Shown in pieces: positions 56,094 through 59,805 of a DNA stretch of 64,000 nt (position 1 is its first letter; every line of letters begins with the position of its first letter). The notes beneath the pieces were generated by a model. That model saw only the letters and a program-made list of their open reading frames with translations, was not told the origin of the DNA and made no database searches. The stretch lies in the NCBI RefSeq assembly GCF_003334785.1, contig NZ_QOWV01000017.1; one strand, given 5' to 3'. The translations under genes and the position numbers were made by a program. The DNA is from Escherichia coli (lineage in GTDB: Bacteria; Pseudomonadota; Gammaproteobacteria; Enterobacterales; Enterobacteriaceae).

Positions 56094-57551
56094 GTGTCTG
56101 AACTGTCTCAATTATCTCCACAGCCGCTGTGGGATATTTTTGCCAAAATCTGTTCTATTCCTCACCCGTCCTATCATGAAGAGCAACTCGCTGAATACAT
56201 TGTTGGTTGGGCAAAAGAGAAAGGTTTCCATGTCGAACGCGATCAGGTAGGTAATATCCTGATTCGTAAACCTGCTACCGCAGGTATGGAAAATCGTAAA
56301 CCGGTCGTCTTACAGGCCCACCTCGATATGGTGCCGCAGAAAAATAACGACACCGTGCATGACTTCACGAAAGATCCTATCCAGCCTTATATTGATGGCG
56401 AATGGGTTAAAGCGCGCGGCACCACGCTGGGTGCGGATAACGGCATTGGTATGGCCTCTGCGCTGGCGGTTCTGGCTGACGAAAACGTGGTTCACGGCCC
56501 GCTGGAAGTGCTGCTGACCATGACCGAAGAAGCCGGTATGGACGGTGCGTTCGGCTTACAGGGCAACTGGTTGCAGGCTGATATTCTGATTAACACCGAC
56601 TCCGAAGAAGAAGGTGAAATCTACATGGGTTGTGCGGGGGGTATCGACTTCACCTCCAACCTGCATTTAGATCGTGAAGCGGTTCCAGCTGGTTTTGAAA
56701 CCTTCAAGTTAACCTTAAAAGGTCTGAAAGGCGGTCACTCCGGCGGGGAAATCCACGTTGGGCTGGGTAATGCCAACAAACTGCTGGTGCGCTTCCTGGC
56801 GGGTCATGCGGAAGAACTGGATCTGCGCCTTATCGATTTCAACGGCGGCACACTGCGTAACGCCATCCCGCGTGAAGCCTTTGCGACCATTGCTGTCGCA
56901 GCTGATAAAGTCGACGTCCTGAAATCTCTGGTGAATACCTATCAGGAGATCCTGAAAAACGAACTGGCAGAAAAAGAGAAAAATCTGGCCTTGTTGCTGG
57001 ACTCTGTAGCGAACGATAAAGCTGCCCTGATTGCGAAATCTCGCGATACCTTTATTCGTCTGCTGAACGCCACCCCGAACGGTGTGATTCGTAACTCCGA
57101 TGTAGCCAAAGGTGTGGTTGAAACCTCCCTGAACGTCGGTGTGGTGACCATGACTGACAATAACGTAGAAATTCACTGCCTGATCCGTTCACTGATCGAC
57201 AGCGGTAAAGACTACGTGGTGAGCATGCTGGATTCGCTGGGTAAACTGGCTGGCGCGAAAACCGAAGCGAAAGGCGCATATCCTGGCTGGCAGCCGGACG
57301 CTAATTCTCCGGTGATGCATCTGGTACGTGAAACCTATCAGCGCCTGTTCAACAAGACGCCGAACATCCAGATTATCCACGCGGGCCTGGAATGTGGTCT
57401 GTTCAAAAAACCGTATCCGGAAATGGACATGGTTTCTATCGGGCCAACTATCACCGGTCCACACTCTCCGGATGAGCAAGTTCACATCGAAAGCGTAGGT
57501 CATTACTGGACACTGCTGACTGAACTGCTGAAAGAAATTCCGGCGAAGTAA
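56094..57551 (+). CDS. pepD: cytosolic dipeptidase (M20 family) PepD
   Basis: 485 aa from GTG start (MSELSQLSPQPLWDIF...). Confidence 0.95.
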   Translation: MSELSQLSPQPLWDIFAKICSIPHPSYHEEQLAEYIVGWAKEKGFHVERDQVGNILIRKPATAGMENRKPVVLQAHLDMVPQKNNDTVHDFTKDPIQPYIDGEWVKARGTTLGADNGIGMASALAVLADENVVHGPLEVLLTMTEEAGMDGAFGLQGNWLQADILINTDSEEEGEIYMGCAGGIDFTSNLHLDREAVPAGFETFKLTLKGLKGGHSGGEIHVGLGNANKLLVRFLAGHAEELDLRLIDFNGGTLRNAIPREAFATIAVAADKVDVLKSLVNTYQEILKNELAEKEKNLALLLDSVANDKAALIAKSRDTFIRLLNATPNGVIRNSDVAKGVVETSLNVGVVTMTDNNVEIHCLIRSLIDSGKDYVVSMLDSLGKLAGAKTEAKGAYPGWQPDANSPVMHLVRETYQRLFNKTPNIQIIHAGLECGLFKKPYPEMDMVSIGPTITGPHSPDEQVHIESVGHYWTLLTELLKEIPAK

Positions 57552-57563
57552 TTATTTGATTTG

Positions 57564-57595
57564 CTGCCGGATGGCGTTTAATCGCCTTCCGGCAG
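57564..57595. terminator. bidirectional hairpin terminator between convergent pepD and prfH
   Basis: ctgccggatggcg-tttaat-cgccttccggcag (13-bp stem, one mismatch) followed by tttca. Confidence 0.6.
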
Positions 57596-57607
57596 TTTCA
57601 TCCTTCA

Positions 57608-58165
57608 TTATCCTTCGATAAAAGCCATCCCTGTAAATGTCCGTCGCGGGTTGCCACGTTCAATCTGGTGATGGAACATTCGCCGCTGCGATTTCAGCGC
57701 CGCGCTATTTTCCTGTTGCTGTTGCTCCAGCTTCCAGGCAATCAGCAATCGTGCCAGCCGCTTGTTAGCATGCTGACTACGCTCTGACTGAACCTTCACG
57801 CTAATACCGGATGCCAAATGCGTGGCGCGTACCGCCGAGTCGGTTTTATTGACATGTTGACCGCCCGGCCCCGACGAACGCAGCGTCTCATAACGGATTG
57901 CATCCGATTGTTCCTGCTCATCAGCGGTAAAACGCCCAATGCCCAGAAACCAGTTTTTGCGCCCATGATGAGGCCGATACGGACTCGGACAAATCCACTG
58001 AATAGTGCCACACCAGCTTTCGCTTAATGCCCATGCGTTATCGCCATCGAGAGAAACCAGCGCCGAACGCAGTGTGTCAGAGTAGCGGCCCGTTTCTGTT
58101 TCCAGCACCGTTACCGCGACGTCTTGCCGGGTAAAAACGACCAACAGAGAAGAACGCTGCGCCAA
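57608..58165 (-). CDS. prfH: peptide chain release factor homologue PrfH, probably N-terminally truncated remnant
   Basis: 185-aa ORF containing GGQ motif ([11 protein letters not shown]); its 5' end overlaps an rtcB fragment in a different frame. Confidence 0.6.
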
Positions 58166-58343
58166 TCGGGTAGCCGCGTCCGGGGTGTAAATCTGGCATC
58201 CCCACTACGCGCTGCATGTTGGGTAAATTTGCCGTGGTGTGTAATTGTTGGATCGCTAAACTCTCGATCCACAGGTCATCAGATGCGATGGTAAATACCG
58301 CATCGGATAAGGGACGAATATATTTGCCCATGTACCATTCCAT
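58077..58343 (-). pseudogene. ykfJ: N-terminal fragment of an RtcB-family RNA ligase (ykfJ-like)
   Basis: 88-aa ORF with RtcB-like N-terminus ([19 protein letters not shown]) that then degenerates; overlaps the prfH 5' region. Confidence 0.55.
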
Positions 58344-58648
58344 TTATACTCGTCATACTTCAAGTTGCATGTACTGCGACTGCGTTCGTTCACCCCAGTC
58401 ACTTACTTATGTAAGCTCCTGGCGATTCACTCGCTTGTCGCCTTCCTGCAACTCGAATTATTTAGAGTATATAAATATAAAAATCAGGAAATGGCAGACG
58501 AATCCAGGGCAAGAAAAAAAGAATTAATCCTGGAAAGGTCTGCAAAGAGTCATTGATAAAGGATTTGTCATGATTTACCTCCTTGCAGTTTGTGGAATCA
58601 GAAAACGCGCACATACCAGGCGGGCGTTATTTTCATTGCAAGCTGGAT

Positions 58649-59101
58649 TTAATGTTGCGGTTTATATCGCATATAAAAATTAGTAAACCACGCTCCCCGG
58701 CATTCAACGCGCTGCTGCTTAACTGTCTGAAAACCATAACGTTCAAAAAAGGGTTTTGCGGTTATGCTTGCGTCCACCGTAAGTTCGGATTCAGACTTAA
58801 TCAAAGGTTTTAACAAAGCGCTGGCAACCCCACGGCGGGTGTATTCAGGGTCAACAAATAACATATCGATATAATGTTCAATGCGGGAAATAAAACCAAC
58901 CGGTTGTGCATTAATGATCGCAACCCACACTTGTGATTTCGCGAGTTTCTCCTTCCAGCGAGATTCGTCAATCTGCGCCCAGGCGGAAATTTGTTGTGGT
59001 GAATAATGCTGACTGGCGGTCATCGTAACCGCTCTAATGAAAATAGCGCATAGTTGCTGAAAATCGCCAGGCTGATAGTTTCTTATTTGTATGTTATTCA
59101 T
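58649..59101 (-). CDS. yafP: GNAT-family acetyltransferase
   Basis: 150 aa; last gene of the dinB operon. Confidence 0.85.
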   Translation of the reverse strand: MNNIQIRNYQPGDFQQLCAIFIRAVTMTASQHYSPQQISAWAQIDESRWKEKLAKSQVWVAIINAQPVGFISRIEHYIDMLFVDPEYTRRGVASALLKPLIKSESELTVDASITAKPFFERYGFQTVKQQRVECRGAWFTNFYMRYKPQH

Positions 59102-59110
59102 AATATAAAT

Positions 59111-59509
59111 TCAAAAACGCATGCGAAACGCTTCTGCCATTTTCCCAATTTTATGCATTTGGTTGTTATCTCGAGCCAGTTTATGAGGTTCAGGTTTCAG
59201 AATGGCAATGAGCAACCATGCTTGCTCATCAAACGCCCCCTGACAATATACCAAATGCGCTTCGTCATTCGTTCTGCTGAATTGGCGCAACTGTGGCGGA
59301 AATGGATTATTCTCATTTGCCAGATGAATATGAGCAACTCGCTCAAATTTGATTAATGGCCAGGTAAAGGAGTCGTCGTAGAGTGCATCGCGACCAAATA
59401 TATCTGGCAAAACACCGTCACGCTTATAGGAAATAAAATCCGCCGTTAACGCATCAAGTTCCTCTGCTGTAAGTTGCAGGCGAATAAGTTTTGTTTTGAA
59501 TACCCGCAT
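59111..59509 (-). CDS. yafO: ribosome-dependent mRNA interferase toxin YafO
   Basis: 132 aa; 2-bp gap after yafN. Confidence 0.85.
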   Translation of the reverse strand: MRVFKTKLIRLQLTAEELDALTADFISYKRDGVLPDIFGRDALYDDSFTWPLIKFERVAHIHLANENNPFPPQLRQFSRTNDEAHLVYCQGAFDEQAWLLIAILKPEPHKLARDNNQMHKIGKMAEAFRMRF

Positions 59510-59511
59510 CC

Positions 59512-59805
59512 TTATTCCTTAAAGTCATTGAAATCATCATCCGTCATATCATTAAGATATTGTTCAGCGCGGCGTGTAATTTCCTCTAATCTTGCAGCAC
59601 TTGGACGGAAGCGCGCCTTTATGGGCTTTTTCTCCTCTTGTTCAGCAAGCATGTCCATTAACGCTTCGAATGCGCTGGCACTTAAGAGATATCCTGCGGG
59701 GCGATTATTAGAAAGAACCGCAACCGGTTGATCAATAAAGTATTTAGCTGGGTTTTTACGTAACTCAGTGATATTGACCGATTTTTCAGCGAGAATTCGA
59801 TGCAT
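59512..59805 (-). CDS. yafN: antitoxin YafN (Phd/YefM-like)
   Basis: 97 aa, acidic C-terminus. Confidence 0.85.
   Translation of the reverse strand: MHRILAEKSVNITELRKNPAKYFIDQPVAVLSNNRPAGYLLSASAFEALMDMLAEQEEKKPIKARFRPSAARLEEITRRAEQYLNDMTDDDFNDFKE

Follow-up and report, generated by a model that had tools for sequence, protein, structure and literature searches.

The question raised by this locus is whether a short open reading frame with an RtcB-like N-terminus, followed by a PrfH-like frame with a GGQ motif, still represents a working RNA repair and ribosome rescue pair, or only what is left of one. The window analysed here is a stretch of 64,000 nucleotides from Escherichia coli, in which the 1.3 kb around the pair match E. 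coli K-12 MG1655 with 100% identity. The remnant is flanked in MG1655 by pepD on one side and by yafP-yafO-yafN-dinB on the other, and both of its pieces are already labelled as partial pseudogenes in the RefSeq annotation (PGAP), namely an "RtcB family protein" with "missing C-terminus" at window positions 58125-58331 and a prfH with "missing N-terminus" at 57608-58114. We regard the region as the inactivated rtcB2-prfH operon of E. coli K-12, consisting of the pseudogenes ykfJ and prfH and representing a non-functional relic, with a probability of about 95%. It is the same object as ykfJ (b0235) and prfH (b0236) in RefSeq and in the study of Baranov et al. (2006, PMC1586002), with the same sequence, the same deletion of about 1,000 nt and the same pseudogene annotation. 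These authors described the prfH of K-12 as N-terminally truncated, reported a deletion common to MG1655, W3110, O157 Sakai and EDL933, by which the upstream gene has lost its C-terminal portion and RFH its N-terminal portion, and called the gene a pseudogene. The locus, the deletion, the function of the intact module and its loss in K-12 are all already known from publications or annotations; the exact junction, the allele frequency of about 50%, and the signs of relaxed constraint together with a second deletion step go beyond the cited papers.

The two open reading frames are both encoded on the minus strand. The upstream one, of 88 codons, starts with an ATG and occupies positions 58077-58343, and the downstream one, of 185 codons, starts with a TTG and occupies 57608-58165. 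The sequence-only reading had described an RtcB-like frame and a 185-aa PrfH frame carrying the GGQ motif in different frames, which agrees with the coordinates and with the NCBIfam matches. Its statement that the first frame runs straight into the second holds as far as the different frames are concerned, but the two do not simply abut, as they overlap by 89 nt (58077-58165). Translation against the intact RtcB2 shows that the 88-codon frame is composed of four extra upstream codons, codons 1-69 of rtcB2 and 15 codons of prfH DNA read out of frame, followed by a stop; the conserved start of rtcB is the ATG at 58331 (MGKYIRPL) and not the one at 58343. The 185-codon frame correspondingly consists of 12 codons of out-of-frame rtcB DNA, counted from the TTG, and of PrfH codons 32-204. 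Because the frames of the two remnants differ, no RtcB-PrfH fusion protein is possible.

An opposite interpretation would take the 185-aa frame for a complete PrfH and the 88-aa frame for something unrelated to RtcB. It is ruled out by both the profile matches and the alignment to intact loci. The 88-aa frame is recognized by the RtcB models NF007153 and TIGR03073 with E values of 8e-31 and 6e-29, although only its residues 5-73 are matched, on profile positions 1-69 of 379, and the scores lie well under the respective cut-offs (107.4 bits vs 407 and 101.1 bits vs 271.8). The residue-by-residue agreement with the intact RtcB2 is nearly perfect over residues 1-69 and stops at A69. The 185-aa frame reaches 277.3 bits with the PrfH model TIGR03072, above its equivalog cut-off of 166.65, and the match covers only residues 13-182 of the frame, on profile positions 31-200 of 200, whereas the first 12 residues stem from the out-of-frame rtcB DNA. 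A full-length PrfH has a length of about 200-204 aa, of which the N-terminal 30 residues belong to domain 2, and the K-12 frame is devoid of what are residues 1-31 in the 204-aa orthologue. The PrfH encoded at the same locus in intact E. coli strains indeed has 204 aa and matches chain 8 of the PDB entry 7sa4 from end to end (residues 1-204 of 204, E value 1.5e-135).

The orthologous intact RtcB2-PrfH module, which is present in ATCC 25922, CFT073 and other strains and is represented in 7sa4, occupies the same position between pepD and yafP. At these syntenic loci, rtcB2 codes for 379 aa and prfH for 204 aa, and the stop of the former overlaps the start of the latter by 4 bp. The parts retained in K-12 share roughly 95-99% DNA identity with the intact module, and the GGQ motif is kept. 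The breakpoints were mapped by blastn and by base-by-base comparison with the intact locus L002, which showed that K-12 is shorter than the intact alleles by 1,027 bp; the alignment against intact loci proposed along with the sequence-only reading thereby placed the breakpoint with single-base precision. The junction in K-12 is the heptamer CCCGGCA (as read on the gene strand) at positions 58125..58131 of the minus strand. Its counterparts in the intact alleles are T/CCCGGCA on the left side, within rtcB codons 67-69, and CCCGACA on the right side, within prfH codons 31-33. As judged from this imperfect 7-bp repeat, the event is a deletion of the microhomology type. It has removed RtcB2 codons 70-379 with the stop codon, as well as the coupled start of prfH and the first 31 PrfH codons, which bears out the earlier proposal that most of rtcB (82% of its codons) and the first residues of prfH are deleted. 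The 4-bp overlap falls within the deleted 1,027 bp, and the directly coupled arrangement of the rtcB2 stop and the prfH start is gone from the window. When K-12 was aligned with three further deletion loci, all four showed the gap at identical columns, and the junction and the remnant lengths are equal in all 12 sampled deletion alleles.

The rtcB2 remnant (ykfJ) comprises codons 1-69 of 379 at 58125..58331 (minus strand), as supported by the PGAP annotation, the match to NF007153 and the comparison with intact RtcB2. In RtcB enzymes, an Asp and a Cys residue serve as metal ligands, and a His residue forms the covalent adduct with GMP. In the alignment with the structurally solved RtcB proteins 4dwr and 2epg, the corresponding residues of the intact RtcB2, D74 and C77 (in GNDIGCG) and H294 (in AHGAGR), fall on the conserved motifs DINCG and HGAGR. 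Both the metal-binding Asp and Cys of the D-x-G-C-G motif and the GMP-accepting His are located beyond residue 69 and are all deleted in K-12, so the remnant does not encode an RtcB active site. The H294N variant has been used as a catalytic mutant of RtcB2 (PMC9304027).

More is left of prfH (K-12 pseudogene, b0236), the remnant of which extends over codons 32-204 plus the stop codon at 57608..58129 on the minus strand, as shown by PGAP, TIGR03072 and the alignment to the intact PrfH. The codons for the GGQ motif are kept at 57857..57865 (minus strand), corresponding to residues 101-103 of the 185-aa frame and containing Q122 in the numbering of the intact protein, the catalytic glutamine that was mutated in PMC9304027. 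The K-12 piece shares the GGQ catalytic domain with RF1/RF2 and ArfB (92 bits with the prfB model, 77-80 bits with prfA and 34 bits with ArfB), but all of these scores are far under the cut-offs of the canonical families. Compared to the class-I factors RF1 and RF2, PrfH lacks RF domain 1 and the motifs for stop codon recognition (PMC1586002), and the K-12 piece is truncated in addition. The authors of the same study argued that the truncated K-12 product would be devoid of a central beta-strand of domain 2, so that its fold appears doubtful.

The sequence-only reading had assigned intact pairs to the rescue or repair of ribosomes, and this has since been shown experimentally (PMC9304027, PMC9223846). 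PrfH frees the peptide from ribosomes with a damaged decoding centre, as demonstrated with the intact PrfH of ATCC 25922, and RtcB2 religates the 16S rRNA (Tian et al., 2022, PMC9304027). Cuts of the 16S rRNA that are repaired by release via PrfH and religation via RtcB2 are those set by colicin E3 or CdiA-CT (PMC9304027, PMC9223846). The intact rtcB2-prfH operon protects ATCC 25922, and it also protects BW25113 when provided on a plasmid (Maviza et al., 2022, PMC9223846). According to this literature, the 204-aa PrfH of intact strains enters the A site when a 16S cut at A1493/G1494 has stalled the ribosome and frees the nascent peptide, and the 379-aa RtcB2 next religates the cut rRNA in the freed 30S subunit. 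In the K-12 lineage, a single deletion of 1,027 bp between the near-identical heptamers has joined the leftovers out of frame, leaving no RtcB active site and a PrfH piece which is deprived of its native start and of part of the domain-2 beta-sheet. Both proteins of K-12 were called "presumably inactive" owing to the deletion by Tian et al. (PMC9304027). The remnant is probably a non-functional relic that drifts neutrally.

The retained GGQ domain still invites the suggestion that a truncated PrfH, consisting of this domain and the C-terminal region, may be made from an internal or new start, e.g., the GTG at 58108, and that it may have a residual or new role as peptidyl-tRNA hydrolase or in ribosome binding. 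The 173 codons of the prfH remnant form a frame without interruption in K-12, which is also open in O157 and other strains. Moreover, the older record of O157 Sakai names both ykfJ and prfH and lists the latter as a 166-aa gene, whose GTG start is equivalent to window position 58108. Transcripts of ykfJ and prfH have been reported in RNA-seq studies of K-12 and B strains, so that transcription of this DNA is not wholly silent, and a reviewer in PMC1586002 remarked that expression was never checked; the literature we found on the expression of the two genes mentions them only at the transcript level, and protein-level data were not found. Nevertheless, we consider a functional truncated PrfH very improbable. 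The native coupled start is deleted, the missing beta-strand of domain 2 raises the doubts about folding noted above, and the knockouts of the remnant genes in BW25113, including that of prfH, did not alter the sensitivity to colicin E3 (PMC9223846). The phenotype test suggested with the sequence-only reading has in this way already been carried out. A consensus scan of 57500-58700 revealed no sigma-70-like promoter, which is weak evidence either way, while two terminator-like hairpins in the same interval are both oriented on the wrong strand. Finally, most of the variants seen solely in deletion alleles are nonsynonymous and affect residues that are invariant in the ten sampled intact alleles, and GGQ is wholly lost in up to about 25% of the deletion alleles.

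These last two points derive from a comparison of 12 deletion and 10 intact alleles, which were picked from lists spread over the range of identities; the sample is non-random, and the statistics ignore phylogeny. A simple pairwise comparison of the K-12 and O157 remnants yields 19 synonymous and 5 nonsynonymous differences, corresponding to a pN/pS of 0.08. Purifying selection on the remnant, as might be read from this value, was rejected as an explanation, because partitioning of the variable sites shows that the divergence mostly represents polymorphism common to intact alleles. For this partition, the two flanks of the junction were aligned separately, the junction heptamer was excluded, and the variable sites were split into shared, deletion-private and intact-private ones. 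The polymorphisms common to deletion and intact alleles amount to 3 nonsynonymous and 23 synonymous sites. The private variants are distributed as 14 nonsynonymous to 8 synonymous in the deletion alleles versus 9 to 27 in the intact alleles (Fisher p = 0.0055 for 12 vs 10 alleles). Among the deletion-private changes at residues that are invariant in 10/10 sampled intact alleles are CPSPY>[13 protein letters not shown]>RPSGPGGQ and KNW>KNL. The older synonymous diversity of the remnant may either have been inherited from the intact state or have been exchanged with intact alleles by recombination.

A further step of decay is seen in other strains, where a second out-of-frame deletion of 169 bp at a 4-bp GCAT microhomology has eliminated a segment that is still kept in K-12 (57774..57942, minus strand; from the alignment of the alleles). 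This second deletion, which removes the GGQ motif, occurs in six of the 12 sampled deletion alleles, one of which carries a nonsense codon in addition. When the 169-bp segment itself was used as query, about 670 of the 5,426 complete E. coli genomes turned out to be without it, which means that at most about a quarter of the deletion alleles carry the second deletion. Within the limits of this small sample, the patterns are supporting evidence, but not proof, that the remnant is a relic under relaxed constraint which is decaying further in some lineages.

The distribution of the deletion allele bears on the suspicion that the apparent deletion is an artefact of assembly or sequencing, or else a mutation specific to K-12 that arose in the laboratory, as a reviewer in PMC1586002 had brought up in view of the mutagenesis history of this strain. 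A match to the 1.3-kb region was found in all 5,426 complete E. coli genomes searched. When a 121-bp probe across the junction was used and a full-length match was demanded, the K-12 junction turned out to be present in 2,692 of these 5,426 genomes, while the deleted 1,027-bp segment is present in 2,715 of them. The genomes with the junction are independent of each other, stem from human, livestock, wildlife and water sources and include O157:H7, and the junction is found on diverged flanking haplotypes. Both the artefact and the laboratory mutation can be dismissed on these grounds: the deletion allele is old and common, being found in about half of the species (O157:H7 among them), and it is not a quirk of laboratory strains.

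Whether this allele goes back to one event is less straightforward. Three versions of the junction heptamer are seen in the deletion alleles, CCCGGCA in K-12, CCCGACA in O157 and TCCGGCA in TW11681, of which the O157 form is the sequence of the right site and that of TW11681 is a variant of the left site. Furthermore, the left flanks of deletion alleles resemble different intact haplotypes. The presence of three heptamer variants on different flanking backgrounds hints that the deletion may have spread across haplotypes or recurred at the heptamer microhomology. On the other hand, a synonymous change at codon 49 of rtcB, private to deletion alleles, is common to 10 of the 12. From these sequence patterns in 22 alleles, the variety of heptamers and flanks would be most simply accounted for by a single origin and later recombination with intact alleles, reaching as far as the homology extends. 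As to the frequency of about 50%, the deletion allele may be held there by selection, via a trade-off between costs and benefits against colicin E3 or CdiA toxins.

Several other features in the vicinity of the remnant vary between strains. Directly upstream of the rtcB' start lies an imperfect palindrome of 127 bp (58345-58471, with arms at 58345-58369 and 58447-58471), which matches both standard ERIC-PCR primer sequences with one mismatch each and was assigned as an ERIC/IRU repeat on account of these matches. The repeat also explains why a median of 6 matching places per genome was obtained with the 1.3-kb query. An internal part of it, about 72 bp long (58379-58450), is absent in some strains, e.g., at L002 and L006 (58382-58453 in L006), independently of the rtcB-prfH deletion. 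The yafN-yafO toxin-antitoxin pair, located between dinB and yafP (59111-59805), represents a second presence/absence polymorphism adjoining rtcB-prfH: it is contained in the window and absent from L002, L005, L009, L015 and L020. In strains without the pair, dinB directly overlaps yafP. In L017 and L022, yafO is interrupted by an internal stop. The interval between pepD and prfH is longer by about 820 bp in some intact strains (L003, positions 1661-2468, as well as L017, L018 and L022; the window equivalent is 57552-57607). This additional DNA codes for a "metal-dependent hydrolase" of 169 aa and a hypothetical protein of 93 aa, and an NCBIfam search with these two proteins gave no match.

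The rtcB2-prfH locus itself shows further independent lesions in three strains. In strain A1.S1.126 (L020, 794-1924), an otherwise full-length rtcB2 has a frameshift of 1 nt near its end, in strain Ec-2939 (H1) an IS903B element is inserted within a remnant of the K-12 type, and in strain CD45 (L016, 1-531) the annotation places an IS1A transposase gene upstream of rtcB2, with no yafP in the stretch retrieved.

As a discovery, the finding carries little weight, since the essentials were known before. It matters for the use of K-12 data, as the names ykfJ and prfH in omics data of this strain should not be taken to indicate an active RNA ligase or release factor. A transcriptomics paper from 2025, for example, read a 2.45-fold up-regulation of ykfJ as the induction of an "RNA ligase RTCB" that maintains RNA function (PMC12871917). 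This reading is an annotation pitfall, because ykfJ of K-12 encodes only 69 of the 379 residues of RtcB2 and no active site, with the qualification that the E. coli strain of that study may differ from K-12. For the biology of the species, the deletion means that this ribosome repair system is missing both from the laboratory strains of K-12 and from about half of the E. coli found in nature; its lack accounts for their sensitivity to colicin E3 and makes them a handy null background for complementation.
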